Positions 1 to 57,077 are shown, numbered from the stretch's first letter. The stretch is 64,000 bases of DNA from Thermoplasmata archaeon (GCA_020696365.1 JAEHCM010000002.1:18751-82750); one strand, 5' to 3'. Made by a program: numbers and translations. The notes: generated by a model not told the origin, from the letters alone.

Positions 1-427
1 TGGAGACGCCCCACGTGGTCGTGCCCACGCTGAGCAAGCTGGCCAAGATCTGCACGTCCTGATCGGCCGTCATGCTGCCGAGGTTGGCGTGAGTGTCTGG
101 GTTGAGATACATGCTACCCACCTCGGACATCACAGGCGGGCTGATAAGCGTCCACACTACGAGGATGACGATGACGGCTGCAATCACGATCCAACGACCG
201 ATGTGCCGGGGTTTCCTCCGCTCCTTCTTCGGCTTGCCACGGCGGCCCTCGCGTTCGTATTCCTCTATCCACATCTCCTGGGGATCGCCGTCGAACTCAG
301 CGGGCGCATCCTCTCCGGGCAGGAACTCGGGAGGCGGCGGTTCAGGCGGTGGCGGCTCCGGAGCGGCCGCAGCAGCCTCACTCGATCCTGCCATGTATTC
401 GTCCTTTTCAGAAGCCAATTGACTCAT
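1..427 (-). CDS. Partial CDS (C-terminus lies beyond the window): Pro/Glu-rich N-terminus, one TM helix, then an extracytoplasmic part
   Basis: Own translation of the minus strand from ATG at 427 (MSQLASEKDEYMAGSSEAAAAAPEPPPPEPPPPEF...RHIGRWIVIAAVIVILVVWTLI...) stays open to position 1. It begins 15 nt after the stop of the upstream aminotransferase. It is absent from the ORF track because it has no stop in the window. Confidence 0.5.
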   Translation of the reverse strand, partial: MSQLASEKDEYMAGSSEAAAAAPEPPPPEPPPPEFLPGEDAPAEFDGDPQEMWIEEYEREGRRGKPKKERRKPRHIGRWIVIAAVIVILVVWTLISPPVMSEVGSMYLNPDTHANLGSMTADQDVQILASLLSVGTTTWGVS

Positions 428-2040: not shown

Positions 2041-5261
<3,221 letters not shown>

Positions 5262-28139: not shown

Positions 28140-28169
28140 CGAGCTAGACATCCTTTTTCTGATTTCAAT
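28140..28169 (-). repeat. 30-nt boundary repeat, variant 2 (minus orientation): ATTGAAATCAGAAAAAGGATGTCTAGCTCG
   Basis: 28/30 identical to 53137-53166 on the opposite strand. It overlaps the TGA stop of ORF 28165..28428 and sits at the GC-rich/AT-richer transition. Confidence 0.8.
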
Positions 28170-28428
28170 AATACGGGGAATCGTCTCCTTCTCCCTTGTC
28201 CTTCCGCTTCAATTTCCTTGTAAGCGAGATAATAAGCGGTGCAATAAGAATCACAGTGCCAAACAGGACAATCTCAAAGAGAAATCCGCTGAGGTTCCTA
28301 TCGGACTCATTGGATCCGCCAATCATCTCAATGGCGGCAATCGCGAGTATCACGGCAGCAAGAACGAGCAGCCCAGGAACCCACTTTGTTATCTTCCTTC
28401 GGCCCTTCTTGCGAATCTTCTTCGCCAT
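28165..28428 (-). CDS. Small basic membrane protein (two TM segments)
   Basis: 87 aa: MAKKIRKKGRRK..., two hydrophobic helices, charged C-terminus. Confidence 0.5.
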   Translation of the reverse strand: MAKKIRKKGRRKITKWVPGLLVLAAVILAIAAIEMIGGSNESDRNLSGFLFEIVLFGTVILIAPLIISLTRKLKRKDKGEGDDSPYY

Positions 28429-28552
28429 TGTTCCTCAGTCGGTGACTGCGCATCAGAGGTTATGATTTTTCCCTGGTCTTCCGCCCCTATGGCCACTCCG
28501 ACTGTTGGCGGCATGCACGTCATCCCGCCATGCCAATATCGTCCTAAAAGTT

Positions 28553-32552: not shown

Positions 32553-32594
32553 AATGTCTAGAATTCTCGGTTCAGGAAAACCCCTTATCTCCTG

Positions 32595-32609
32595 CTGAAA
32601 AATGGATAG
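32595..32609 (+). repeat. Degenerate copy of the boundary repeat (CTGAAAAATGGATAG, preceded by ATCTCCTG as in copy D)
   Basis: ATCTCCTG-CTGAAAAATGGATAG compares with ATCTCCTGAGAAAAGGCCATAG at 53193-53215. It lies just after the DEAD-box gene stop. Confidence 0.3.
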
Positions 32610-32718: not shown

Positions 32719-32790
32719 TGGACCGAAGGGGATTTGAACCCCTGACCTCCTGCTTGCAAAGCAGGCGATCTTCCACTGATCTATCGGCCC
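32719..32790 (-). tRNA. tRNA-Ala (anticodon UGC)
   Basis: The minus strand reads GGGCCGATAGATCAGTGGAAGATCGCCTGCTTTGCAAGCAGGAGGTCAGGGGTTCAAATCCCCTTCGGTCCA. It has a 7-bp acceptor stem with G3:U70, anticodon loop TTTGCAA, and no encoded CCA. Confidence 0.93.
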
Positions 32791-37229: not shown

Positions 37230-38096
37230 TCATCTCGCCGAGGCAGAGACTCGCTCGACCTCTTCCTTCTTTCTGACCGAGTAGCAGTTGACATCGCCCT
37301 TCGAGGCGGCGATTATCTCGTCCGCGAGACACTCGCCTATGGGTTTCCTGCTCTTGTGCGACGACTCGAGCGCTCCCCGACAGATGTGCCTCAGTGCGAG
37401 GTCGACTCTCCTAGCAGGTGCCACATCGACCGCCTTCGGGACGGATATGCCGCCGTACTGAAGGCGCGTGACCTCCTCGCGAGGGGCGGCGTTCTGGAGC
37501 GCGTCGACGAGCATCTGGAGCGGAGCCCTCTTGGTCTTATCGTGGATAATGATGAAGGCGTCCTCGACCGCCCTGTAGCTCTTAATCTTCTTGCCGGTGA
37601 AGTCCCCGGTCCTCATCATGCCGTTGATGAGCCTCTCGACGACGCTCATCTTGGCCTTCCCGAAGGCCTTGCTGGTATGTTTGCCTCCGGTGTGCGGGAC
37701 GGATATCGGGGAGACATCGATATATCTCGCCATGCCAGGGTCGTCGATGTGGATCTCGGAGACGTCGAACCTGCCGAACAGCAGGACGTTGTCCAACGCG
37801 GAGGGCGTGGGTTTCGGCTTCGCCTCCTTGATCGAATCAGCGGTCTGCGGTTTCTTCGGCGCTTCCTCCTTAGTTTCGGGAGCTTCCGAAGGAGCGGGTG
37901 GTGCAGCGGCCGCCTTGGGCTTACGCTTGGGTTTCGGCTTCTCCACCTTGATCGGGGCAGCGGTCTGCGGCTTCTTCGGAGCTTCCTCCTTAGTTTCGGG
38001 AGCTTCCGAAGGAGCGGGTGGTGCAGCGGCCGCCTTGGGCTTACGCTTTTCAGCGGGCTTCTCCTGTGACGGTGTCTGTGGTTTCTCTTCCTCCAT
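37230..38096 (-). CDS. rps7: 30S ribosomal protein S7 (uS7) with an ~85-aa Lys/Pro/Ala/Glu-rich N-terminal extension containing a tandem repeat
   Basis: The S7 core starts around LLFGRFDVSEIHIDDPGMARYI... ATG at 38096 is preceded by GAGGTGA and lies 5 nt after the rps12 stop. The longest ORF start 38333 overlaps rps12 and is rejected. Confidence 0.88.
   Translation of the reverse strand: MEEEKPQTPSQEKPAEKRKPKAAAAPPAPSEAPETKEEAPKKPQTAAPIKVEKPKPKRKPKAAAAPPAPSEAPETKEEAPKKPQTADSIKEAKPKPTPSALDNVLLFGRFDVSEIHIDDPGMARYIDVSPISVPHTGGKHTSKAFGKAKMSVVERLINGMMRTGDFTGKKIKSYRAVEDAFIIIHDKTKRAPLQMLVDALQNAAPREEVTRLQYGGISVPKAVDVAPARRVDLALRHICRGALESSHKSRKPIGECLADEIIAASKGDVNCYSVRKKEEVERVSASAR
37805..38048. repeat. 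Tandem duplication, 2 x 120 bp, inside the rps7 5' extension
   Basis: 37861-37928 is identical to 37981-38048 (68/68). The flanks are diverged. It encodes KPKRKPKAAAAPPAPSEAPETKEEAPKKPQTA twice. Confidence 0.9.
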
Positions 38097-38599: not shown

Positions 38600-40130
38600 T
38601 AGGGCCTGCCAGATTGTCCGAGCAAGTGGTTAGAGCCTCTTGCCGCAGTACTTGCAAAACTTGGCATCGCTGTCATGTGAGGCGCCGCAGCCAGGGCAGA
38701 CCCCGCGGGCGTTGTCGGCACTTCCCGAGGCGTTTGAGGATGGAACCGCGTGACATCCACCCCATGCTTGAAAGCAGGGGCTTCCTTTCTCGGCGGCATC
38801 AGCCACCACCAGGAACGGTTCCTGCTTCACAGAACGGAGAAGCCAGGTCGTTTGTTCGCCCTGGTTGAACTCCACTCTCCACAGGCATGAGTTCGGCGAT
38901 GTCCTCGCCTACCTGAGACAATCCTCTTTCGAGGATGTTTCGAGCCGCATTTTCGTCCCGGCCTATGGTGTTGCCACAGGCCGGACAGCTGTACACTCTG
39001 AGCCACAACGGCATGTCCTTCACATGCTTGCAGACGTTACATTCCATCGTGGAACGCCACGCTGACGGTTGGACGAACCGATTGCCCTTCCGCTGTACCT
39101 TGTAGTCCACGAAGCCACACAGTTGGCCCCATCCTGCGTCGTGGATGGATTTCGCAAGACGATGGTTGTGGGCCATGTCTCTTATCTGCAACTTCTCCAT
39201 CGCTACGAAATCGTACTTGTCGGCTATCTGGCGCGAGAGCTTGTGGTTGAAATCACGCCTGGTCCTGGCGACCTTCCGGCTCTGCTTCGCCATCCTCTCG
39301 ATGGCCTTGACGCGGTTCTTCGACCCTTTCTGCTTCCGTGACAATTCTCTCTGTAAATGCTTGAGCCTCCGCTCGTGAACCTTCAGGGGTTTTGGCGGCT
39401 TGACGTGCCAGCCGTCCGAGGTCGTGATGAGCGCCTTCAAACCCAGATCTATGCCGACCGGATGCTCGATTGGCAGACCGCGCGGCTCCACGTCCGGTAC
39501 TTCGTACTCCAGCACAACATACCACTCTATCCCTTCCCGCTTCACAGTACACCGCTTGTTCTTCCCGTTCGATGGGTCGCGGTGTACCAGTATCGGCACA
39601 TAGCCAATCTTGGACAGGTATATTCTAGTGTTCTTCCGCGTGACACCAAGTCTTACCGAACCATTGTAAGCGTCCGGATACGTTATTGAATCGTAACTGC
39701 CGAACTTCTTGAACTTCGGATACCTGGCGTTCTTCTTGAAAAACGCCTGGTATGCCCGCTCCAATCGCAGTACGACATCTTGAAGGACATGGCTGTACAC
39801 GCCCTGCAAGAACGCGCTGGACCTCTTATCGACCGCTATCTGCCTATTCTGCTCGAACCGGCTAACCGATATGCGTTCGTTCTCCCATGCGCCCTTACGC
39901 TCCGCAAGGCATCGGTTCCACAGCCTTCGACATGTTTCCAATTGCTCCGCCAGCGTCCGCTCTTGTTCCTTCGTTGGGTAGATGCGGTACTTGCGGATCT
40001 CGATGATCTCAAACCCTTCCTTGTTCTTCGATATGTGACCTGTATTTCGTTTTCATAGCCTAATTCCATTATAACACTATCCGATACATGTGATGTTCGT
40101 CGCCCTATCCCCATGTCTAAAGCCAGGGAG
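38600..40130 (-). mobile_element. TnpB-only IS200/IS605-family element (no tnpA); ends not determined
   Basis: tnpB lies between the DUF99 gene stop (40178) and the rps12 promoter (38575-38584). The boundaries are guesses from flanking gene and promoter positions. Confidence 0.45.
38799..39941 (-). CDS. tnpB: TnpB (IS200/IS605 OrfB-type RNA-guided nuclease); the conserved N-terminus continues upstream without a canonical start codon
   Basis: RuvC residues in GIDLGL, AMEKL and GRDENAARNIL. Zinc finger CNVCKH...CPACG. The reading frame continues upstream as ...GFEIIEIRKYRIYPTKEQERTLAEQ, back to a TGA at about 40050, with no ATG/GTG/TTG before the TTG at 39941. Confidence 0.85.
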   Translation of the reverse strand: METCRRLWNRCLAERKGAWENERISVSRFEQNRQIAVDKRSSAFLQGVYSHVLQDVVLRLERAYQAFFKKNARYPKFKKFGSYDSITYPDAYNGSVRLGVTRKNTRIYLSKIGYVPILVHRDPSNGKNKRCTVKREGIEWYVVLEYEVPDVEPRGLPIEHPVGIDLGLKALITTSDGWHVKPPKPLKVHERRLKHLQRELSRKQKGSKNRVKAIERMAKQSRKVARTRRDFNHKLSRQIADKYDFVAMEKLQIRDMAHNHRLAKSIHDAGWGQLCGFVDYKVQRKGNRFVQPSAWRSTMECNVCKHVKDMPLWLRVYSCPACGNTIGRDENAARNILERGLSQVGEDIAELMPVESGVQPGRTNDLASPFCEAGTVPGGG

Positions 40131-47104: not shown

Positions 47105-48070
47105 ATGAAGACGACCAAACCTGTAAGGCTGACAAAGGGCGCAACGATAGGAATAGCCTCACCTTCGAGCTTCTCCGAGCCTTTCGGACTCGGACAGGGA
47201 GTCAAGTACCTGCGTGAGCTCGGCTACAAGGTAGTGCTCGGAGAATGCACGCGTAACCTCACGCGGTCGGGCTTCACGGCCGGCAAGGACGAAGCGCGCG
47301 CGAAGGAACTCACGGGCATGTTCGCAAACGACAAGGTCGACGCGATCTTCGCCTCGAGAGGGGGCTACGGTGCGATGCGGGTGCTCCCTCATCTCGACTT
47401 CGGGGTGATCAAGGACAACCCGAAGATATTCATGGGCTACAGCGACATCACGACCCTTCACGTCGCGATACACCAGAGGACTGGCCTCGTGACGTTCCAC
47501 GGGCCCTCCATCGAAGGATATGCGGGCGACAATCCTGAGAAGGACTTGCCGACCGGGAAGCCGAACATAGATAGGGCGCTGAAGATGTTGAGCAAGGCAG
47601 AACCATGGGGGAACCTGGAGAACCCAGACAAGGGCATGCTGCTCAGAACCATCGTCCCGGGGAAAGCCAAGGGCAAGTTGTTCGGAGGGAACCTCTCGAT
47701 GATCACGCACACCTTCGGAACGGAGGATTCCATCGACACTAAGGGCAAGATCATGTTCTTCGAGGACGTGTACGTCTCGGAGTACGACGTAGAGAGGCTG
47801 CTCACCCACATGCATCTAGCGCGCAAGTTCGACGGGGTCGCGGGTATTGTGATGGGACAGTTCTCGAATTTCCCGAAGCGAGAGGACTCACAGCCTAGCC
47901 TGGAGGAGATTCTCCAGGACAGGATCGGCTGCCTCAAGAAGACGCCTTCGTTCACCGGCCTCTGCTGCGGCCACGGCGCCATGAAGCTCGTAATGCCAGA
48001 GGGTGTCAAGGCATCGATGAACGCGACCTCACCTGTACTGAGGATAGAGGAGAGCCCGCTCGTCAAGTAA
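47105..48070 (+). CDS. LD-carboxypeptidase (peptidase S66, MccF-like)
   Basis: IGIASPSS, GYSDITTLH (nucleophile Ser), and a C-terminal H/E region. Confidence 0.85.
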   Translation: MKTTKPVRLTKGATIGIASPSSFSEPFGLGQGVKYLRELGYKVVLGECTRNLTRSGFTAGKDEARAKELTGMFANDKVDAIFASRGGYGAMRVLPHLDFGVIKDNPKIFMGYSDITTLHVAIHQRTGLVTFHGPSIEGYAGDNPEKDLPTGKPNIDRALKMLSKAEPWGNLENPDKGMLLRTIVPGKAKGKLFGGNLSMITHTFGTEDSIDTKGKIMFFEDVYVSEYDVERLLTHMHLARKFDGVAGIVMGQFSNFPKREDSQPSLEEILQDRIGCLKKTPSFTGLCCGHGAMKLVMPEGVKASMNATSPVLRIEESPLVK

Positions 48071-48142
48071 CGACGCCGAGACGGTGCGTCCGAAAACACA
48101 CATGAAAGATGGGGCGAGCGACTCAGACGTCACATATTGCCT

Positions 48143-48164
48143 CGACAGAAACATATTTCTGTCG
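48143..48164. repeat. Perfect hairpin: 9-bp stem, 4-nt loop (CGACAGAAA CATA TTTCTGTCG)
   Basis: Read directly. It lies 73 nt after the LD-carboxypeptidase stop and about 100 nt before repeat copy A. Confidence 0.7.
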
Positions 48165-48265
48165 GCTACCTCCCTGTTTATGTCGACTGCCTGGTCCATC
48201 CAGTCTTTTTCTACCTCTTCTGTTTATTCCCGATGCCAAAGAACACCACTTAGAGTCTTGATTCC

Positions 48266-48288
48266 CTCAGAAAAGGCCTTAGGGGCGG
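48266..48288 (+). repeat. Cassette-boundary repeat, copy A (CTCAGAAAAGGCCTTAGGGGCGG)
   Basis: Matches the consensus CTGAGAAAAGGCCATAGGGGCGG. The upstream TCTTGATT is shared with copy D0. Confidence 0.75.
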
Positions 48289-48512
48289 GAAAATGAAGGA
48301 GGTTTGCGCCGAGCCGTCAATCCCTGCTGATTGACTCTTCCGCTTACTTTGCTGGCTGTCAACCGACAGTCTCCGAACGACCATCTCTTTTATTGTCCGA
48401 CCTTCCAGCGGGAGCGCCGACCAGATTGAACGTAAAACACGCAACCACATGAGCGAAAGAAGAAGAATGAACGAGAAAGGGTTTTTTCCTAGATCTTGTC
48501 GTCGCCCTCGGC

Positions 48513-50114
48513 TCATTCGGCATGTGGTTCTGGCAAGGGCTCCGGCGTCTTCGGCTTCCTGCCCATGACCATCATGACGATGAGAAGGACGATTACGACC
48601 ATCAGGAGTCCAATTACGGCGTACAACATCGAATCTAGGGAGTCCAGCTGAGACTGAAGGGCGTTCAACTCGCTCTCAAGCGTTGCAGTCTCCTCCAGGA
48701 GGGCCGCCTTTGTCGCATTGATATCGGAACTCATGGCATCCAACTGCGCTAGAACGTCGAACAGCTGTGCCTCTAGATCCGCGACATGCTCTTCCAATGT
48801 GGGAGCGTCAACAACGGTTAACAATAACTCCTGAACTGGCAGTTCCACCCCGCCTGAGGCCGTATTTGTGTACCATCGCACAACAACACTGTATGTCCCT
48901 GGCTCGGCGGTCACAGGCACCTCCAGCTCAATCGCAATGGTCGAGTAAGGTGCGGAAATCCATGCGTTCACTGGATTAATCGGAATCTCCTCCGGGGAGA
49001 CGAAATACGCATAGTAATCCGAGCTCGTTACCGTCCCCCTGTTGGCAAAATCGACGGTCAGCGTGACTGTGACACTATCGCCGGCACGCACCTCAGACTC
49101 GGAAAGCGATGAGGTCAGCTCCATCACAAGCAACGCGAGAACCTGAGGGGACACATCGGTGTTGTTGTTTCCTCCGAAGGCGTAAACCACCCCGTCCGCC
49201 GAAGCTGCTGCACCCAGGTATCTCACGCCAACTGGAATATCGTCCAGTTGGGTCCAATCACCTGTTGAGGGATTGAAACAGTATGACGTGTTGTATCCCC
49301 ACTCGACGTTGTTCGCGGAGTTAGCGCCGCCGATAACGTAGATCAAGCCATCGGGACCGACGACGGCAGCGTGGGCCGCCGTCGGAACGGGCATCGGGTC
49401 AATCGTGCTCCAGGAGTCGGAATAACTATAGTATGTGTACACTGAATCCACGGCTGCGTATCCAGGTTCCGAACCGCCGATGTAGTAGCAGGAGTAACCC
49501 ACCTGCAGAAGGGCTCCGGCAAATACGGCACCTGGGAGACTACCTCCGGCTGACCAGCTGTCGTCGACGATGTCGTATATCTGTGTGTTGGTGAGTGCGC
49601 CCTCTCCGCCGACAACGATTATCTCACCTGACTCCAAACTAGTGGCCTTGGCCTCCCATACGCCCAGAGGAACAGCAGCGCCAGAGGTCCAGATATCTGT
49701 TTCAGGGTCGTATATCTGCGTGACATTGTTCGTGGAGGCGCTTGAGTTCGCTCCGCCGAAAACGTAGATCCTCCCATCGTCTCCCAGGGCACCCGCGGCC
49801 CCTCTGACACCGTACGGCATCTGAGCCAGATCGGTCCATTCCCCCGTGCTCGGGTTGAATGATTCGACATTGTCGACCACCGGTCCGTAGTTGCCGCCTG
49901 ACATGCTTCTGACTCCACCCATGATGTAGACGATCCCATTATCGTCCTGCAGGACCACCGCCTGGGTCCGGTTGCCTCTCATTGGGTCCTCGACCTGCCA
50001 GTCCGAAGAAAACGCAGCACTCGCCGAAGGAGACATGGACGTCAGGGCACACAATACCAGCGAGACCACTATGCATAAGGCAAGTCCGCTGACAACTCTA
50101 TTCTTCACTATCAT
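48513..50114 (-). CDS. Kelch-repeat surface protein (signal/TM, beta-propeller, Ig-like region, coiled coil, C-terminal TM anchor)
   Basis: Repeated ...IYV(F/I)GG... / W(T/S) blades, a C-terminal LEAQL...LESELNALQSQL coiled coil, then a hydrophobic anchor. ATG at 50114 lies after GGAGTGG. Confidence 0.75.
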   Translation of the reverse strand: MIVKNRVVSGLALCIVVSLVLCALTSMSPSASAAFSSDWQVEDPMRGNRTQAVVLQDDNGIVYIMGGVRSMSGGNYGPVVDNVESFNPSTGEWTDLAQMPYGVRGAAGALGDDGRIYVFGGANSSASTNNVTQIYDPETDIWTSGAAVPLGVWEAKATSLESGEIIVVGGEGALTNTQIYDIVDDSWSAGGSLPGAVFAGALLQVGYSCYYIGGSEPGYAAVDSVYTYYSYSDSWSTIDPMPVPTAAHAAVVGPDGLIYVIGGANSANNVEWGYNTSYCFNPSTGDWTQLDDIPVGVRYLGAAASADGVVYAFGGNNNTDVSPQVLALLVMELTSSLSESEVRAGDSVTVTLTVDFANRGTVTSSDYYAYFVSPEEIPINPVNAWISAPYSTIAIELEVPVTAEPGTYSVVVRWYTNTASGGVELPVQELLLTVVDAPTLEEHVADLEAQLFDVLAQLDAMSSDINATKAALLEETATLESELNALQSQLDSLDSMLYAVIGLLMVVIVLLIVMMVMGRKPKTPEPLPEPHAE

Positions 50115-50346
50115 TTCAACCACTCCGATTGCACCTTTTCAGATGATCAACTGGCAAAGACAAAGCCCGCCGAATCGCCCAAGTTATCGACACGTGAGGA
50201 TAAAAGCCCTGTGGACTACCATGTGTCAAACGTTAAGGAGGATATAGGCAAGCAGGTTATCCCGCAACTCTTCATACGATCCAATAACCTGAGGTTTTTG
50301 CCTTCATGCCTATCTTTCTCACTTTGCCAAGCCAGATGATCCGCCG

Positions 50347-50703
50347 ATGGGTCAGGACGCTCAAGGCAGCATGGTCAAAAGAACCACAGCCAGTATTGAG
50401 ATAGTGTCCCAAGAACCAGAATTGGAGAAGCTAGCAAAGCTTTACGGAGGATTTTTCAAGGACTCAAAAGACATCCGCAACGGCGTCGTCCACACGGATG
50501 ATAGAATAGATGATGTGGTCAGAGATCTTGGCAACTTGTACGACTCCAAGTTCACCTTCGATGGCAAGGAACTTGGAATCGGCCCTGAGTTGGAACGAAT
50601 TCTGGAAGAGTTCTTTGAGGGGCTTCTGCAGGCATGTGAGTCTATTGCTGAGCGACAACGCAGAGAGGCAGTAGGCGGTCCCAGGAAATCTGAATCGCCG
50701 TGA
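50347..50703 (+). CDS. Hypothetical protein; its stop codon lies inside repeat copy B
   Basis: 118-aa ORF. Its TGA at 50701-50703 is the TGA of the repeat. Confidence 0.45.
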   Translation: MGQDAQGSMVKRTTASIEIVSQEPELEKLAKLYGGFFKDSKDIRNGVVHTDDRIDDVVRDLGNLYDSKFTFDGKELGIGPELERILEEFFEGLLQACESIAERQRREAVGGPRKSESP

Positions 50704-50722
50704 GAAAAGGCCATAGGGGCGA
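50700..50722 (+). repeat. Cassette-boundary repeat, copy B (GTGAGAAAAGGCCATAGGGGCGA)
   Basis: 21/23 match to the consensus. Confidence 0.85.
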
Positions 50723-50774
50723 ATCCTTGGCTATTCCCGCGTGGAAACGCGTCTGAGAGCGTGCAAAAGACCTT

Positions 50775-51536
50775 ATGCGGATAACAGGATTCCATCGAAA
50801 GGAGATGGTTCGAATGTATGGTGGAAACGTTATGACTTGCGAGAACTGCCGGTACTCGCGGGCCGCCCTTAGCGAAGTATGTCCTATGTGTCTGCGCTAC
50901 AGTGTACCTAGAACAGACAGATGGGCACCATCCAAACAATTCCGCACAAAGAGCGAAGAAGAGGCGGAAGCCGAAGAGGAAAGGCAACGTGTAGCCGACG
51001 AGGAGATACTGATGAAGGCGGGAGCTGGCTTCTTCGTGAGGGAGCGTGATGCCGTGTTGGGGTTGATCGAATCCTCACAGGAACGATATGGCGTCACAGT
51101 TGAATTCCTGCTAGAGGAAGCGCGAAAGCTCAATATCCCTGAAGGGCGCGTCAAGGTGCATCTGAAAGACCTAGCCTACAAAGCGAACATTTACCAACCT
51201 CGTTGTGGACGATGGAAGGTCACGGGATTCCCAGACTCTGAAGAAGTGGACTAGCATCATCTAGGACGCATTCTTTCGCCTAGATGGCCTTGCTTTCGGC
51301 CCTATGCGCCCTCGGAGGCATCTTACCATCACCGCGAGGAGATCGCCCCTTTCAAGAACCGAGACGGAAGGCCCTATCTTGAGCAGCATCATATAGTCTG
51401 GAGGTCGCGAAAAGGGGATGATCTTATCACGAATACTGCAGCCCTATGCCCCAACTGTCACAGAAGAATGCATGCGCTCGACCTGAAGCGAGATAGAGGC
51501 TTATTGCTGAGAAAGGCCTCTGAGAGAAGCCCTTAA
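50775..51536 (+). pseudogene. Zinc-ribbon / HNH-nuclease gene interrupted by an in-frame TAG (51252-51254)
   Basis: The 159-aa ORF (CENCRYSRAALSEVCPMC...) ends at TAG. The same frame continues as ...APFKNRDGRPYLEQHHIVWRSRKGDDLITNTAALCPNCHRRMH (HNH motif) to TAA at 51534-51536. Confidence 0.6.
51507..51526 (+). repeat. Degenerate cassette-boundary repeat, copy B' (CTGAGAAAGGCCTCTGAGAG)
   Basis: The first 13-14 nt match the consensus. It overlaps the 3' end of the HNH reading frame. Confidence 0.45.
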
Positions 51537-51571
51537 GCCATCGAAGGCGATGCGGAAGACGGGGAAATGGT

Positions 51572-51928
51572 ATGAGTTGTATCGAGGGTTTATTGAGTGA
51601 TTTGTGTAAGGATGTCGAACGGGAGCTCAAACCAGCAGCTTCTGGACTTCTGACGGGCTTTGTGGTCAAAAGCTTCTTGCCTCAAGACTGGATATTCAAA
51701 ACTGAACAAGAGTCTGTCACATTCCATGTGACGAAGTCCGGGTCAGCCACTTCCAAGGCCGGCGAATCAAGAAACCCTGATGTTGTTGTCGAATGGAACC
51801 ATGATTCTTTGGCAACAGTGCTTCGGACGCGGTCCAGTGAGGGCATTTCTCGCCCGCCAAGAGTGAGGATTCTGACGGCAAAAGGTCAGACTGGATACAA
51901 CCAACTTCGTAAGCGCATTGGCATTTGA
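51572..51928 (+). CDS. Hypothetical protein; its stop codon lies inside repeat copy C
   Basis: 118-aa ORF. Its TGA at 51926-51928 is the TGA of the repeat. Confidence 0.45.
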   Translation: MSCIEGLLSDLCKDVERELKPAASGLLTGFVVKSFLPQDWIFKTEQESVTFHVTKSGSATSKAGESRNPDVVVEWNHDSLATVLRTRSSEGISRPPRVRILTAKGQTGYNQLRKRIGI

Positions 51929-51947
51929 GAAAAGGCCATAGGAGCGG
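51925..51947 (+). repeat. Cassette-boundary repeat, copy C (TTGAGAAAAGGCCATAGGAGCGG)
   Basis: 21/23 match to the consensus. Confidence 0.85.
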
Positions 51948-51997
51948 ACCACCAAAGAAAGTCATATAAGCACTCAACAAGGATTCTGCATCAGAGG

Positions 51998-52081
51998 ATG
52001 GCAATGAAGTGTCCAGAGTGCGGAGGAGCCCCCCCTGATCCCCTCAGGGATATATCGAAAAGAGGGATGGGGATGCCCTGA
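51998..52081 (+). pseudogene. 27-codon zinc-ribbon gene fragment (MAMKCPECGG...), ending in a motif-like sequence
   Basis: Only the first CxxC of a ribbon is present. The 3' end, TCGAAAAGAGGGATGGGGATGCC (52055-52077), resembles repeat copy G. Confidence 0.35.
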
Positions 52082-52555
52082 CACTTCTCTTGTTTGGGGA
52101 TGAGGGGGAGCTTGCTAGTTTCCAGATACTACGTTCCTCTTGCCGTTGTCGATTTACACTCTGCAAGAAAACCTGGAGAATGCATAGCGGTTGGAAACCT
52201 TAGGTAGATGCGAGCATTGCGGCATGAGACTCTGAGGTTGCATGCCAAAAGGAAATGAACGGGTTTAGCTCCGGTTTTCCAGTGGCCCTCAAAGACGCGA
52301 TAGACGAGGCAACCGTCTCAAAACCTTTCACGATCGAATTATCCATGACCACCGCAGTGGGTTGCTCCCCCATGCCTCCCTTTTCATGAACCCGCCTTAA
52401 GCCACCATCTGTAGGTACCGTCTTATCGTGTAGCAGGAGCACAAGGTTGTACGACGAAGCCCGTGGCGTGTATTGCACTGAGTCAAGAACGTGATTCTTC
52501 TCTGTCTCCTATTTGGTGGAGATCTCTTGCGCACTTGTTCTTGTGAAAGGAGGAA

Positions 52556-52945
52556 ATGAAAATGGAAAAAGAGTTTAGCGTGAAGTTGGCGAACAAGCCC
52601 GGAGAGCTCGCGCGGGTAGCGGAGGTTCTGCAGAAGGATGGCGTAAACATACGCTCAATCGCGACAGAGCCTAACGCCGAGGTCGTGAGAATCGTCACGT
52701 CCGATCCCGAGAAGAGCCGGCGAAGCTTCAACCAATCGAACATGCAGTTCTCCGAGAGGAACCTGCTTGTGGCCAAGCTCGAGGACAAGCCTGGGGAGCT
52801 CGCCCGAATCTCGGCAGAGCTCGCCAAGGAAGGCATCAATATCAATGCCGCCTACATGCTCGACAAGGACGCAAATCGTGTGCATGTGGCGCTAGCCGTC
52901 AGCGACGAGGACAAGGCAAAGACCATCCTAAAGTGTTGTGATTAG
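52556..52945 (+). CDS. Tandem ACT-domain protein
   Basis: Two copies of the (K/D)KPGELAR(V/I)...L(A)K(D/E)G(V/I)NI pattern. ATG lies after AGGAGG. Confidence 0.7.
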   Translation: MKMEKEFSVKLANKPGELARVAEVLQKDGVNIRSIATEPNAEVVRIVTSDPEKSRRSFNQSNMQFSERNLLVAKLEDKPGELARISAELAKEGININAAYMLDKDANRVHVALAVSDEDKAKTILKCCD

Positions 52946-53136
52946 GACTAGTACCTTGCCGACAAAACCCCTTACCTTTTCATTCCCTCATGGATGTTAT
53001 GATGAAGTGGCCCCCGCCAATATCGTGGTTCATCAAGACTACGCGGAGCTCGTTCCCATCGAGAGCGGAACCAGCGTTTCGGTCATAGTCGCAATCTGAT
53101 GGACCATTGCATTTCTGGACGCGATTTCAACTCTTG

Positions 53137-53166
53137 ATTGAAGTCAGAAAAAGGATGTCTGGCTCG
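53137..53166 (+). repeat. 30-nt boundary repeat, variant 2, copy D0 (ATTGAAGTCAGAAAAAGGATGTCTGGCTCG)
   Basis: 28/30 identical to the reverse complement of 28140-28169. It lies 35 nt upstream of copy D. Confidence 0.8.
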
Positions 53167-53200
53167 GAGAGGAGTCAAAACCCCTCTGCCGCACAATCTC

Positions 53201-53223
53201 CTGAGAAAAGGCCATAGGGGCGG
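53201..53223 (+). repeat. Cassette-boundary repeat, copy D (CTGAGAAAAGGCCATAGGGGCGG)
   Basis: Equals the consensus. Confidence 0.88.
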
Positions 53224-53332
53224 AAGGGCGACAAGGAGATGGAAGCCGCCGAAGGCCCTCCGCCCGTCAGCCTCGGCTCCTCAGGAAGGCTCTTAAAGAC
53301 TCGGAATCATCCACACCAAGGTCTCTGATGGA

Positions 53333-54145
53333 ATGGAAATGACGAATTTGCCTAAGGGAGTGGCATCATCTAACGCAGGCGTAATTGCCAAAAGGCTAGG
53401 AACAGTCTCTGGCGACAGAATATTGGATGTTGCCACAGGCAAAGGAACATTCATTGACACTTTGATGAAGACTCTGAAAGATTATGATTCCTTTGTTGGG
53501 ATAGATTATTGCCCTTCCGCTACTTCAAGAGAGGAGATGGAATCTGCAAAGAAACGGTTTGAAGGAATGCCCGTGCGTTTCTTTGAGATGAACGCCGAGA
53601 CCTTGAAGTTCGAAGACGGATCTTTTGACACAGTCTGTATATCCCATTCTCTGCATCACCTCGCAAATATAGACATGGTGCTAACCGAGATGAAGCGAGT
53701 GCTGAGAACCTGCGGCAATTTCATACTTCAAGAGGCTTACTGCGATGGAGACCAAACCGAGGCGCAGAAATCAGAGAGACTTCAGCATGAGTGGGGAGCA
53801 CGGATCGACTCTCTGCTTGGCATCACCCACAATAAGACCTTCACCAAACAGAGAATCATGAACATCGTGAACAGTCTGGAGCTGAGGGAGCTAGAGGTTT
53901 ATGATTCTACACATTCCGTCGACTGCCTGTTCTGTGAGAGGAAACATGAGTGCGAAGACCCGAAGAATCAGGCAACATACCACGATTCGATCAAGGAGAT
54001 TGATGATGCATTCAGAGAGATAGAGAACTACCCCAATCTGGAAATTCGGAATCACCTGAAGGACGAGGGGGAGAGAATCAAGGAGACGATAGCCAAGTCT
54101 GGGGCGGCGTCAGCATCATTTCTATTAATCATTGGCAAGACTTAG
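53333..54145 (+). CDS. Class I SAM-dependent methyltransferase
   Basis: Motif I ILDVATGKGTF, post-I VGIDY, FDTVCISHSLHHL. AT-richer composition. Confidence 0.8.
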   Translation: MEMTNLPKGVASSNAGVIAKRLGTVSGDRILDVATGKGTFIDTLMKTLKDYDSFVGIDYCPSATSREEMESAKKRFEGMPVRFFEMNAETLKFEDGSFDTVCISHSLHHLANIDMVLTEMKRVLRTCGNFILQEAYCDGDQTEAQKSERLQHEWGARIDSLLGITHNKTFTKQRIMNIVNSLELRELEVYDSTHSVDCLFCERKHECEDPKNQATYHDSIKEIDDAFREIENYPNLEIRNHLKDEGERIKETIAKSGAASASFLLIIGKT

Positions 54146-54214
54146 CCTGTTTCTCAGAATGACAGTGCTGGTGATGGAGGTTTATCCGGATTCATGGCCC
54201 GACGGCTGCAGATT

Positions 54215-54237
54215 CTGAGAAGAGGCCATAGGGGCGG
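54215..54237 (+). repeat. Cassette-boundary repeat, copy E (CTGAGAAGAGGCCATAGGGGCGG)
   Basis: 22/23 match to the consensus. Confidence 0.88.
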
Positions 54238-54444
54238 ACGGAACAAGGCACACGCCGCCCTGCAGGATTCTTTGAGTACTCGCTCCGACTTGGCGCACTT
54301 CATATTCGTGCTCCAGGAGGACCGTCAGCCCCGCGAACCCGCCGATGGTCAGGCAGGGTCGGTCGCGGACAACAGTGAAATAGTCTCAAGACAATCCCAG
54401 ACAGGCTCCGGGGCGATCCCCCTCGGACCTTGGGAGGAGATGTC

Positions 54445-54984
54445 ATGGGAGAATCCGTATCTGACCCGGCCGTCGCCGGAGGGCAACAGCAGCCAGACGC
54501 GCCTCCAACGAGACAGTGCGTCTCGTGTGGACGCAGGATAGACTGGAATTCAAACGCCTGCCCGTACTGCGGGCACGACTACAGAATGGCGCAGCCTGGA
54601 CAGGCTGCCCCGCAGAAGGAGAGAAGCATGCTGCCGGTGATCGGCGGCGTGCTCATACTCATCGCGGGACTCGCAGCCCTGGGCATGGGCGTGGCGTTCA
54701 TGGCGTTCGACGCTCAGGACTTCGAGGACTGGGTGGACCTCGACGAGTTGGATGTGTCGCTCAGCGAGCTGGATGACATACTCTTCACGTGCGGCGCCGT
54801 GGTGATGGTCTTCGGTGTGATCGGGGTCCTCGGGGGCGTGTTCGCGATAGTCCGGAAGCACTTCAGCCTCGCAGTCGTGGGCGGGATATTCTCGATTCTC
54901 GGTCTGGGTTTCGTGGTCGGCGCCGTGGTCGGTCTCATCGGTCTGATCCTGGTCTTTGTCGGCAGGAGCTCCTTCAACGAGTGA
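54445..54984 (+). CDS. Zinc-ribbon membrane protein (N-terminal CxxC-x11-CxxC, four TM segments)
   Basis: CVSCGRRIDWNSNACPYCG followed by hydrophobic helices. ATG at 54445 lies after GGGAGGAG. Confidence 0.65.
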   Translation: MGESVSDPAVAGGQQQPDAPPTRQCVSCGRRIDWNSNACPYCGHDYRMAQPGQAAPQKERSMLPVIGGVLILIAGLAALGMGVAFMAFDAQDFEDWVDLDELDVSLSELDDILFTCGAVVMVFGVIGVLGGVFAIVRKHFSLAVVGGIFSILGLGFVVGAVVGLIGLILVFVGRSSFNE

Positions 54985-55206
54985 GCGCCTGCGGTGAGTG
55001 CGCCGAATAAGGGTTGATACACGCCAGTGTATCGCCCTCAAACCATAATCATCGCAATTTTCTATAATTTCCTTCACCATCTCAATAGGTCGGCTAGTGC
55101 GTCTTGTAGCGGGTCTGCGCACTACTGAGGTGATGGGGTGGGAGCAACGGGTAGTACTCCGTCGACTACTCGGAGCTGTGTCTCGTGCGGCCGCACATCA
55201 AATCAG

Positions 55207-55229
55207 CTGAGAAAAGGCCATAGGGGCGA
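55207..55229 (+). repeat. Cassette-boundary repeat, copy F (CTGAGAAAAGGCCATAGGGGCGA)
   Basis: 22/23 match to the consensus. Confidence 0.88.
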
Positions 55230-55266
55230 AAGGGCTGAGGAACCACTCTGTCTGGGGGAAAGCCTT

Positions 55267-56100
55267 ATGGCTCTACGCTTCGTTTGGGCAACAGGGAAAT
55301 CGACATTGACGCTAGTACAGGCCTGCATTGCACATGAAGGAGAGCGGGTCATTCTAATTGGGGACAGACTTGTCACGAGGAACATAGGTACCGACGTTCC
55401 GTCCTATGAATATGAATCGCACAATCGAAAGGTTCTCCTCAAAGGAATGGTTGGAATCGGGTTCGCAGGAGATGTGGTCCTGATAGACCAGTTCGTAACT
55501 GAATTATCGGGCAAGAGGGACTACAACAGCATTGTTGACAGCATCGCAGAGTCCATTAAGAAGGAAGACGAGAAAGCCACTGAAAGGTATGTGAGGTCTC
55601 GCACGGGCCTATCCGCGAAGCAGTTCTTTGAGAGGACAGACGCCAAGATACCACCGGACTATCTGGTTGACGAGGTCTACGAGGGCATAGAGGAGCGCGT
55701 CGACATTGGCGCCCTCGTTGCGGGTTATGACAGGAACGGGAATGCCAAACTCACTGTCGCCGACGCCGATGGAGAAGTTCTTAACTTCACGAACCTCGGG
55801 AATGTCTCGATTGGCAGTGGTAGCACTCTGTCTGGCATATACTTCGACCAAAACCGCTACGATCCGCGCATGAACGAGAATGAGGCTCTATTGTTTGCCT
55901 TCGAGGCGAAGAAGTGGGCGGAGGCGCACACTGGTGTTGGCCATTCAACCGACATAATAATCATCAAGAAGAGGGGCAAGTCAAAAGAAATACTGGAAGA
56001 GTCCCCCCAGATGGAGAAGATGAACCGAGTCTATGAGGAAGAGCGCCGGAAGCAGAAAGAGGTCAGGAAAAGGCTCATTAGGAAGATGTTCCGAGAATAG
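55267..56100 (+). CDS. Proteasome-subunit-like (Ntn-hydrolase fold) protein with a basic C-terminal tail
   Basis: STLTLVQA...GERVILIGDRLVT, IGFAGDV, ALVAGYDRNGNAKL, SIGSGS resemble the proteasome beta/HslV-like block order. ATG at 55267 (MALRFVW) chosen, because the upstream part of the ORF runs through the repeat. Confidence 0.55.
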   Translation: MALRFVWATGKSTLTLVQACIAHEGERVILIGDRLVTRNIGTDVPSYEYESHNRKVLLKGMVGIGFAGDVVLIDQFVTELSGKRDYNSIVDSIAESIKKEDEKATERYVRSRTGLSAKQFFERTDAKIPPDYLVDEVYEGIEERVDIGALVAGYDRNGNAKLTVADADGEVLNFTNLGNVSIGSGSTLSGIYFDQNRYDPRMNENEALLFAFEAKKWAEAHTGVGHSTDIIIIKKRGKSKEILEESPQMEKMNRVYEEERRKQKEVRKRLIRKMFRE

Positions 56101-56182
56101 GACGGGGTGTGTCGTGATGCACTCCGTATAAAACAGCACTTGCCTTCATCTGCATTGTCTTATATGCAGTGATCGTCTTCCC

Positions 56183-56203
56183 CGGAAAAGGCTATGGGGG
56201 CGG
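56183..56203 (+). repeat. Degenerate cassette-boundary repeat, copy G (CGGAAAAGGCTATGGGGGCGG)
   Basis: Same orientation. It is the last copy before the composition returns to GC-rich. Confidence 0.55.
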
Positions 56204-56489
56204 TACGATAGCTCTTGGTCGGTTGTGGGAACCCCCGCAAAAAATGACATGCAACAAGTATGGCGAGTAATTCCGAGTGTCGAAATCCTAGCAGCGGCAA
56301 TACAACGAGGGAGATGATCATGATTGCGAGCACTACCAACGATCCCGCTATGCCGAACCTATCTCCGATGATTATCATTCTTGCTTGAGGGACCTTGGGA
56401 ATCTGGGGAAAGGCCATCATCATACAATGTGAGAAAGCCGCATAAGTATACTCGAATGGGACTCCGGTCTGCAGTGGGCCGTCCTGCCA

Positions 56490-57077
56490 CTAGAAGAGCT
56501 GCTCGAACATGATCAGGGCGCCGAAGGCCAGGAGCGCAATCACGGACATTCGGACAGCGCGGAGCCACGGGCGTCCGCGGCCCAAGGTTCCCAGGTAATA
56601 TCCCGCGCCGAAGATGATTCCGATACCAAGGATGCTCGAAAGCATCGCTGCCGCACCGAAATCACCAATGACCCCCGCGTCAAACAACAGAAGTGGAGTC
56701 CCCATGACGATGGCAACGAAGACCGGCGCAAAGAAGTTGACTGTAGCCACCGCATAGGCGGAGACTCGTGCCTTCCGCTCGATTTCAGTGTCCTCCATGG
56801 ACGACAGCATCGCCCGCTCGACCTTCCGCATCTCAATCTCAGTCTCGACATGCTCGGCTTCATAGACACTCACAGCAGTGGAAATCCCGATGGCAAGGCA
56901 GGCGGCAAACACGGTTCCAACGGCGATCTCCGGGTTTGCATCGGGAATGAATGCTGACGCTGCAAGAATCCCAAGTACCACGAAGGTTGAGTCGAACAGA
57001 GTGTTAATGAAGTAGCGACGCAACAGTTCTTGTGGCTCGACGGGCAATACTCTCCGCAGAAAATCTGCCAGACTCAT
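56490..57077 (-). CDS. VIT1/CCC1-family membrane protein (paralog of 9458..10063)
   Basis: RRYFINTLFDSTFVVLGILAASAF and the same TM layout. Confidence 0.65.
   Translation of the reverse strand: MSLADFLRRVLPVEPQELLRRYFINTLFDSTFVVLGILAASAFIPDANPEIAVGTVFAACLAIGISTAVSVYEAEHVETEIEMRKVERAMLSSMEDTEIERKARVSAYAVATVNFFAPVFVAIVMGTPLLLFDAGVIGDFGAAAMLSSILGIGIIFGAGYYLGTLGRGRPWLRAVRMSVIALLAFGALIMFEQLF

Follow-up and report, generated by a model that had tools for sequence, protein, structure and literature searches.

What kind of sequence marks the ends of gene islands in the genomes of uncultured Thermoplasmata? The question is raised by a 64,000-nucleotide (nt) stretch of a Thermoplasmata archaeon (GCA_020696365.1 JAEHCM010000002.1:18751-82750; hereafter "the window," i.e., the whole stretch analyzed), which is archaeal by its large-subunit (LSU) rRNA at 2041-5257 and in which the minus strand at 28169..28140 (ATTGAAATCAGAAAAAGGATGTCTAGCTCG) and the plus strand at 53137-53166 (ATTGAAGTCAGAAAAAGGATGTCTGGCTCG) agree at 28 of 30 positions. 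An earlier note on this DNA had reported the match, which we verified, and had taken it for a variant of a 23-nt repeat that forms an array at 48 to 56 kb and marks boundaries of islands. As a noncoding marker of island and cassette boundaries, the element is genuine. Our analyses suggest that the 30-mer is part of a distinct element (V), which is probably a relic of the end of an integrase gene that serves as the distal attachment (att) arm, i.e., the attR scar, of tRNA-targeting elements in a clade of Thermoplasmata, and that the 23-nt repeat (M) marks cassettes that move between species.

Profiles of M and V were made from other genomes exclusively, with the window left out, and nhmmer searches with these profiles recovered eight M copies and two V copies in the window (Table 1). 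The M repeat (consensus yCCCyT-GAGAAAAGGCCATAGGGGCGGAA; conserved site of 23 to 28 nt) was found by an exact-pattern scan of one genome per species in 92 genome stretches from more than 15 species of metagenome-assembled genomes (MAGs). Its carriers are nearly all Thermoplasmata MAGs, including three closed chromosomes, and its copies often form same-strand arrays. The V element (consensus TTCCCCGCTGATTGAAATCAGAAAAAGGATGTCTGGCT; logo TTCCCcgTTGATTGAAATCAGAAAAAGGAtGTCTGGCT; ~42 nt in its full form) is present in 23 copies in genome loci and 117 copies in 100 metagenome stretches (L numbers designate such loci), which makes more than 100 copies in Thermoplasmata genomes and metagenomes. Neither M nor V was found in the viral contigs searched. 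Two short contigs labeled Candidatus Thorarchaeota FT1_004 (JAEOUG01; L019 and L021) carry M arrays and a complete composite of V, tRNA fragment, and M; these Asgard-labeled contigs represent either misbinned Thermoplasmata or cross-phylum transfer.

The supposed link to the array repeat holds in part. V and M have a (C/G)AGAAAA(A)GG block in common, but nothing beyond it, and V is a distinct element rather than a variant of the 23-nt repeat. The two often occur together: M begins 37 to 43 nt past the end of V in about one-third to one-half of the copies (13 of the 23 in genome loci), giving a composite of ~105 nt. No strict hybrid sites with a V 5' part and an M 3' part were found, and a CTGATTG remnant lies 8 to 16 nt upstream of four M copies (~0.2 expected). 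Several metagenomic copies (e.g., L106, L113, L118, L126, L135, and L158) have a further recurrent motif, GGAAAGGGGTTTGG, which lies close behind M or immediately follows the first half of V. Rfam gave nothing at M or V, neither at the gathering score nor, in a range (48000-56500) covering V, the core, and M, at E ≤ 5.

The stretch that separates V from M is a tRNA 3' end, from the T-arm to the discriminator. A tRNA end was scored where sequence within 46 nt of V matched the last 16 nt of an actual tRNA of these loci at 13/16 or better. By this measure, 67 of the 102 V copies examined had a tRNA end behind them (40 of the Gly-GCC type, 21 of Gly-CCC, and 4 of Ala-CGC), compared with 0 of 102 shuffled and 1 of 102 random genomic controls. 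ARAGORN called no tRNA at any V itself. In L112, L138, L180, L181, and L186, an intact tRNA-Gly(CCC) gene precedes V by 0.9 to 3 kb on the same strand, and the 3' end of this tRNA recurs after V in L112, L138, L181, and L186. L010 reads as a series of integrations into one tRNA-Gly(GCC), in which every M array ends with V and a tRNA fragment. M itself lies 6 to 300 nt downstream of 13 of 41 tRNAs, in the orientation of the tRNA, and within 60 nt upstream of none.

The other side of the element is an integrase gene. An open reading frame (ORF) in L172 matches PF00589 (E = 3.8e-16) and, weakly, PF16795 (E = 3e-4); its best NCBIfam match is XerA (64.8 bits against a cutoff of 220), and tblastn detected full or C-terminal homologs in 13 loci. 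The C-termini of this family read ...(N/S)PPLIExEKxxSGYA-stop, and V translated in the same frame reads N-S-P-L-I-E-I-R-K-R-M-S-G, like the last ~14 codons of the integrase. The 3' ends of 11 of 12 integrase genes align to V at one offset, with CTGATTGAA and CTGGCT blocks in common and an identity of 19 to 30 of 40 positions (random mean, 15.9). In 8 of the 12 loci examined, the integrase stop is followed, 1 to 6 nt on, by the reverse complement of a tRNA or tRNA-like 3' end, and ARAGORN called the tRNA at this stop in L180, L187, L066, and L082. Integrase and V are inverted relative to each other, with V on the 5' side of the integrase, in seven of the eight loci that hold both; in every locus with both an integrase remnant and M copies, the M copies are divergent from the remnant and on its 5' side, and M directly abuts a truncated integrase in L045 and L083. 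A derivation of M from the integrase 3' region was rejected, as nhmmer found no similarity. A search for V as a terminal inverted repeat (nhmmer) found no inverted V upstream of V at E ≤ 10; the inverted partner of V would be the true integrase 3' end, which the profile missed because it is too diverged.

Taken together, the frame match and the duplicated tRNA 3' ends make it probable that V is a relic of the integrase-gene end and the distal att arm. V would be a conserved copy of the last 13 to 14 codons of a tyrosine-integrase gene, carried by elements that target the 3' ends of tRNA genes, mainly tRNA-Gly(GCC) and tRNA-Gly(CCC) but also those for Leu, Ala, and Arg. Read along the tRNA strand, the integrated order is an intact forward tRNA, a reverse integrase gene with its stop 1 to 6 nt from the tRNA, the cargo, a forward V, and a tRNA 3' fragment. 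In the recurring layout, the integrase is often truncated and the cargo is split by a succession of forward M copies into one-directional arrays of gene-sized cassettes, with M always pointing away from the integrase. In a circular form, V would face the true integrase 3' end across the tRNA-like core and so form a large quasi-palindromic attP, with the integrase crossover presumably in the T-loop region. The (C/G)AGAAAA(A)GG sequence of V and M may be a common protein-binding block, in which case M may also be a substrate of this integrase or of a relative.

The orientation of both sequences is consistent with such an arrangement. The strand of V agrees with that of the neighboring M copies in 143 cases and disagrees in none, and adjacent M pairs lie on the same strand in 194 cases and on opposite strands in 1. 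Among the confident genes in units running from M to M, which came from a home-made gene caller spot-checked with Pfam and were themselves checked by ORF listing and Pfam, 76 are co-oriented with M and 41 are opposite (35% of 117); some M copies with a perfect sequence even head into large convergent genes from the 3' side. The rule that the element is oriented like the gene it follows is therefore generally wrong; the orientation of V and M is set by the array and the target tRNA, not by the neighboring gene. A replichore-polar motif was also rejected, since the strand of M alternates along the closed chromosome CP070736.

The earlier note had further placed the 30-mer on the stop codon of the upstream gene. 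At 28.1 kb this is correct (the TGA of the ORF 28428..28165 falls in the ATTGA of the 30-nt element, and the ortholog of this ORF in L059, from another species, has the same ending within V), but it is not a rule: in 20 of 23 V copies, the frames that end at the V TGA have 12 to 50 codons and unrelated sequences, which indicates that V is noncoding as found. The TGA of M was likewise rejected as a regular gene stop, given that only 13 of 289 M copies end a frame of at least 60 codons there.

Elements of this general kind are known. Classical type II (pNOB8-like, nonsuicidal) archaeal tyrosine-integrase elements reside in tRNA genes and include tandem integrations (PMC8371274). Like them, the elements described here have a PF00589 recombinase, a tRNA 3' target, an intact tRNA at one junction, and a duplicated 3' fragment at the other; they stack downstream of one tRNA (L010), and their integrases decay, leaving cargo-only islands. 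Related loci show a tyrosine recombinase, a tRNA with its direct repeat, and the integrase at one att junction. The att core starts past the integrase stop codon, and C-terminal fragments end at the tRNA; with the core outside the ORF, the elements are of the classical type and not of the suicidal SSV type (SSV1, pTN3, and pT26-2; PMC8371274, PMC7253208). They share with the latter an archaeal host, tRNA targeting, integrase sequence within the att region, and the weak PF16795 match, but here the tRNA core lies just outside the ORF, whose stop precedes the tRNA end by 1 to 6 nt, and the gene is not split on integration. An int(N) segment was not seen at the V side, and no int(N)/int(C) pair occurred in the examined loci. 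Three features set the elements apart from the classical type II examples, i.e., the last ~14 codons of the integrase recur, inverted, as the att arm at the opposite end, this arm is kept across integrase subfamilies with different target tRNAs, and the cargo consists of cassette arrays separated by M. Moreover, the lineage (uncultured Thermoplasmata) and the integrase family are not among the characterized classical examples, and PMC8371274 mentions Thermoplasma only with XerA. V itself is probably a scar of a tRNA-targeted integrative element, known in kind, with an unusual arm made from integrase codons.

The greater novelty lies in the M arrays. Genomes share homology in modules, whose breakpoints coincide with M in 26% of cases compared with 3% for random positions (~9-fold), with peaks at both M edges. 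A 490-bp module running from M to M is 88 to 93% identical in four species and has unrelated flanks in all of them, and M-bounded modules common to species have a median identity of 86%, against 72% for other homology. L050 and L074 (95 to 98% identical) differ by one M in L050 where L074 has two M copies enclosing 965 nt; the single M is a hybrid of the left and right copies, which places the crossover in the GGGGCGG part of M. The extra cassette of L074 is a homolog of the ACT-domain cassette of the window. Units between M copies have a median length of 560 bp and mostly hold a single gene, and the cargo, to which the opposite-strand genes in M loci also belong, consists of ordinary accessory genes. 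Exact-protein look-ups for the ACT and 159-aa cassettes found neither on record. By these sequence comparisons, M marks cassette gain, loss, and exchange between species, with breakpoints inside M.

An alignment of 289 M copies is conserved at positions -5..+22 and uninformative on either side, so that M is neither a miniature inverted-repeat transposable element (MITE) nor a duplication; a repeat of the MITE or repetitive extragenic palindrome (REP) type was rejected on this limit and on the absence of dyad symmetry. Contigs from the Logan assemblies end at window positions 53204 (L103), 54247-54252 (L102), and 55199 (L100). Of the five internal contig ends in the short-read data of two samples, four lie within 15 nt of M, and one contig runs exactly from M to M; such ends may reflect population heterogeneity or repeat-induced graph breaks and are not used as evidence.

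Clustering of the called proteins of M loci revealed no recurrent recombinase. The integrase is a candidate for acting at M, as suggested by the block common to V and M and by IntpTN3, which is reported to recombine short identical sequences besides att sites (PMC8371274) and which would be a precedent for an integrase acting at repeats like M. A recurrent protein of 340 to 430 aa with two helix-turn-helix (HTH) motifs (L057 2927-3955, L035 3247-4275, L186 2032-3324, and L032 1942-3012) has an AsnC-type N-terminal HTH and a second one at about residues 175 to 211 with weak matches to transposase- and resolvase-type HTHs. It is a reverse-oriented cassette, 89% identical between two species, and could be a regulator or DNA-binding partner of M or V.

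We tentatively propose, as a possibility that falls short of being the favored outcome, that these loci represent a new integron-like form of gene capture, in which the non-IntI integrase of tRNA-integrated elements, or a related enzyme, would insert, excise, and exchange cassettes across species at M, and V would be the outer att arm. Among the integrons used for comparison are sedentary chromosomal integrons, clusters of attC sites lacking integron integrases (CALINs), and the archaeal integrons of Ghaly et al. 2022 (PMC9668308). As in integrons, the integrase gene faces away from an array that runs in one direction and whose cassettes are diverse in function and mostly hold a single gene; an ORF may be missing from a cassette or lie in reverse, and cassettes are found in different contexts across species and are present or absent as a whole. 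Unlike in integrons, the junction is a nonpalindromic site of 23 to 28 nt of the double-strand type instead of a folded attC, the integrase is not IntI, the platform as a whole lies within an element integrated at a tRNA, with V and a tRNA fragment as its boundary, and the cassettes seem to carry their own promoter-like sequences. The pdif modules of Acinetobacter plasmids are likewise gene sized, have no recombinase of their own, are bounded by short (28-bp) recombinase sites, and occur in varied contexts. The pdif sites are of the XerC/XerD type, palindromic, and alternating in orientation, whereas M is nonpalindromic and strictly co-oriented. No paper with the motif string or with a description of such Thermoplasmata arrays was found in the literature library searched, and the arrays, integron-like without attC or IntI, appear to be undescribed.

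Several observations weigh against these interpretations. No circular or excised form was recovered, nor did any single contig carry an intact element complete with integrase, M array, and V; most integrase copies are truncated. The DNA identity between V and the integrase ends is moderate (48 to 75%), and the V profile scores these ends weakly (nhmmer E = 0.07 to 0.5). The M breakpoints may stem from ordinary short-homology recombination or slippage instead of integrase activity. The loci were chosen for containing M or V, and the frequencies are biased to that extent. In the window, tblastn detected no integrase homolog at E ≤ 0.01; its tRNA-Ala and tRNA-Gln genes are not adjacent to V, and no intact target tRNA stands at either V. 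The best tRNA 3'-end match downstream of V copy 1 (8/16) lies below the threshold, the core at 53167..53202 (12/16) just under it, and the window copies are read as relics by analogy with other genomes. Finally, same-strand ORFs start 20 to 60 nt after M (20 to 80 nt from the M start) in 44% of cases compared with 16% in the control orientation, and M may be an expression signal in addition to, or instead of, a recombination site.

The last point bears on an alternative that we regard as unlikely, namely that V, with the GC-rich hairpin and T-run behind it, serves gene expression at the 3' ends of transcription units, either as a terminator that works in both directions or as a minihelix resembling tRNA and processed by RNase P or RNase Z, and M is the promoter or leader of the next unit, with the resemblance to integrase and tRNA reflecting ancestry without a present function at the DNA level. 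The A-run of V and the T-run of the trailer flank a long imperfect hairpin, and the 37- to 43-nt spacing would be that of a unit end ahead of the next M. Besides the enrichment of ORF starts, unrelated genes start at exactly +36 from M in seven cases, and blocks resembling the TFB-recognition element and TATA box (BRE/TATA) follow M in several classes; these three observations together suggest that the cassettes are self-contained expression units. However, most V copies show no advantage in folding over shuffled sequence (z between +0.9 and -1.4, with -2.1 for one copy), covariation is weak (four pairs), 35% of the genes between M copies are antisense, and perfect M copies face the 3' ends of convergent genes. 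M was rejected as an ordinary promoter, as the stable-RNA (rRNA and tRNA) promoters of the window use canonical AT-rich TATA boxes unlike M; the AT profile showed no fixed TATA downstream of M. An expression element would also leave unexplained the duplicated tRNA-specific 3' ends, the inverted geometry of integrase and V, and the indel with the hybrid M.

That V is a diverged member of the M family, i.e., that there is one boundary repeat with two variants and without an integrase or tRNA origin, is a good deal less probable. The two have (T)(C/G)AGAAAA(A)GG and a loose GG..C.GG in common, never disagree in strand, and both stand at module ends, and the M at 48268 has a V-like TCAG and is preceded by CTTGATT, which resembles the 5' block of the integrase and V. 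These resemblances are outweighed by the lack of any cross-match between the M and V profiles in the window in either direction, by 20 further conserved positions and a tRNA 3' fragment partner that V has and solo M copies do not, and by the reading frame of V, which agrees with integrase C-termini, while M has no similarity to integrase 3' regions. This explanation is largely refuted.

The integron-like properties also suggest canonical archaeal integrons or CALINs, with V, hairpin, and M forming an attC recombined by an IntI-type integrase, and we consider this highly improbable. Archaeal integrons are known (PMC9668308), the arrays are one-directional and divergent from the integrase, and the ~105-nt composite has conserved ends and a variable central hairpin. 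Yet most junctions are solo 23-nt M copies, which are not palindromic and have no R''/R' cores (RYYYAAC/GTTRRRY); attC-like folding was rejected, with M mostly unpaired and a mean z of -0.2 to -0.8 against -0.15 for controls. The central hairpin is the tRNA 3' end and not an attC, and the integrase scores 25.2 bits with TIGR02249 (integron integrase), whose cutoff is 265. Chance or a longer coding duplication, in favor of which there is nothing but the shortness of the 28/30 match, is refuted by a 23-nt core found exactly twice in the window (0.00 expected from shuffles), by flanks that self-comparison showed to be nonhomologous, by more than 100 independent copies elsewhere, and by the unrelatedness of the ORFs that end in V.

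Table 1. Features of the V and M elements and their cassettes in the window.
Feature	Position	Strand	Evidence and remarks
V copy 1	28140..28181	-	nhmmer E=6e-8; putative solo att arm, tRNA-derived core lost
Cargo gene, 87-aa membrane protein (transmembrane)	28165..28428	-	M remnant 5', V 3'
M, 3' half only (GGCCATAGGGGCGGAAG)	28475..28494	-	exact GGCCATAGGGGCG; nhmmer E=0.003, model positions 16-33
M, first of 48-56 kb array	48268..48290	+	nhmmer E=4.5e-6
M	50702..50724	+	nhmmer E=1e-7
M	51927..51949	+	nhmmer E=6e-7; followed by decayed cassette
ACT-domain cassette body	52251..52976	+	Pfam ACT; 90% identical to L074 4577-5301
V copy 2, left arm of composite junction	53124..53166	+	nhmmer E=2.5e-10; aligns with 12 composite copies from other genomes
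Decayed tRNA-3'-end-like core (GAGAGGAGTCAAAACCCCTCTGCCGCAC) and short trailer	53167..53202	+	between V and M
M, perfect consensus; right side of composite and start of methyltransferase cassette	53203..53225	+	0 mismatches; nhmmer E=8.8e-10
M	54217..54239	+	nhmmer E=2.7e-7; Logan contigs L102 and L103 end 10-15 nt beyond
M and proteasome-like cassette, complete M-to-M module	55209..56182	+	91% identical to L012 901-1869
M, terminal, degenerate; array end	56183..56205	+	4 mismatches; nhmmer E=0.006

By analogy with the other genomes, both V copies of the window would be relics. The copy at 28.1 kb is a solo V that closes a one-gene module, whose gene now runs on into the scar and terminates at the TGA there (the last codons and stop of the gene, ...DSPYY-stop, lie in V). 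Pfam gave no convincing family for the encoded 87-aa protein. The module abuts the 3' end of a convergent SLOG/TIGR00725-type gene, and an M copy on its 5' side, at 28494..28475, had been overlooked in the earlier note. Window 28142-28494 corresponds to L059 1461-1823 (72%) from M to V, with unrelated flanks; in L059 a tRNA-Ala(CGC) 3' fragment still stands behind the V counterpart, and another tRNA-Ala(CGC) fragment and M precede the module. This first island is collinear at 96% identity in a second strain (L093) without strain polymorphism, and thus stable within the species. In L058 (~100-215, minus strand), a 3' gene fragment encoding ...RKLKRTDKGDGDDSPLY and a stop, followed by M, lies downstream of tRNA-Ile. 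This fragment is homologous to the C-terminus of the 87-aa protein, so that the same cargo gene recurs beside different tRNAs.

The boundaries around this first module differ from those drawn before. The GC content does not switch at 28.14 kb; the drop begins at ~29 kb (0.536 at 28 to 29 kb; 0.43 to 0.48 at 29 to 33 kb). Of the four convergent sites said to carry the element, those at 48.3 and 56.2 kb do belong to the 23-nt family (Table 1), but the one at 32.6 kb does not: the "degenerate copy" at 32587-32609 has no match with the M or V profile at E ≤ 50, and its conservation in L043 is at the level of the neighborhood only. Nor is the far edge of the AT-rich block an island edge marked by a repeat, as the adjacency of the DEAD-box gene and tRNA-Ala is ancestral and common to another species. 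In that species, represented by the DATKWQ01 MAG, 28 nt of the tRNA-Ala 3' end recur behind the DEAD-box gene (L043 4931-4960; the region matches window 32719-32790), and an intact tRNA-Ala lies on another contig beside unrelated M-containing DNA (L002 4929-5049). Judged from the two contigs, this arrangement is the signature of a separate insertion into tRNA-Ala in that species, and this comparison is the only evidence for excision or integration.

The site at 53.1 kb is a fossil composite junction within the array, made up of V, a tRNA-like core that has decayed, and an M without mismatches. The core is of the GAGAGGGTTCAAATCCCCTCTCCCGCAC subtype found in L139, L143, L177, L189, and others, a subtype identical to the 3' end of the tRNA that adjoins the integrase stop in L139, L045, and L143. 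Upstream of it, the decayed cassette at 51950-52250 (plus strand) has a BRE/TATA-like block (AAAGAAAGTCATATAAGC), a Shine-Dalgarno-like GAGG, and a 26-codon remnant of an MKCPECGG zinc-ribbon gene; a very decayed M-like stretch lies at ~52173-52190, ahead of the ACT cassette. Further along the array, the homology of window 55210-56178 to L012 runs from the 5' edge of M to the next M, with unrelated flanks.

The window has other features of note. A group I catalytic intron lies within the LSU rRNA gene at 3992-4243 (plus strand; Rfam full-length match, 68.6 bits, E = 2.8e-15). A TnpB-type ORF with OrfB_IS605 and a Cas12f1-like TNB domain (38799-39941, minus strand) adjoins the cluster of ribosomal protein S12, EF-2, and EF-1alpha. 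At 37805-38044 (plus strand), a 120-nt unit occurs in two tandem copies that are 93% identical; L093 aligns there as two overlapping high-scoring segment pairs and appears to carry a single copy.

V and M would provide two short tags for flexible regions and fossil integration sites in archaeal MAGs, and they call for caution in annotation, since small ORFs may run into integrase scars and short-read assemblies break at such junctions. The compact pair of integrase and att site is also a potential genetic tool. The M-array system is apparently widespread in Thermoplasmata of sediment, soil, and groundwater. If the arrays are driven by a recombinase, they would represent a second archaeal route to modular gene capture, with a mechanism unlike that of integrons, and would account for the spread of small accessory genes (including those for surface proteins, peptidases, transporters, regulators, and methyltransferases) among the species of this uncultured lineage.

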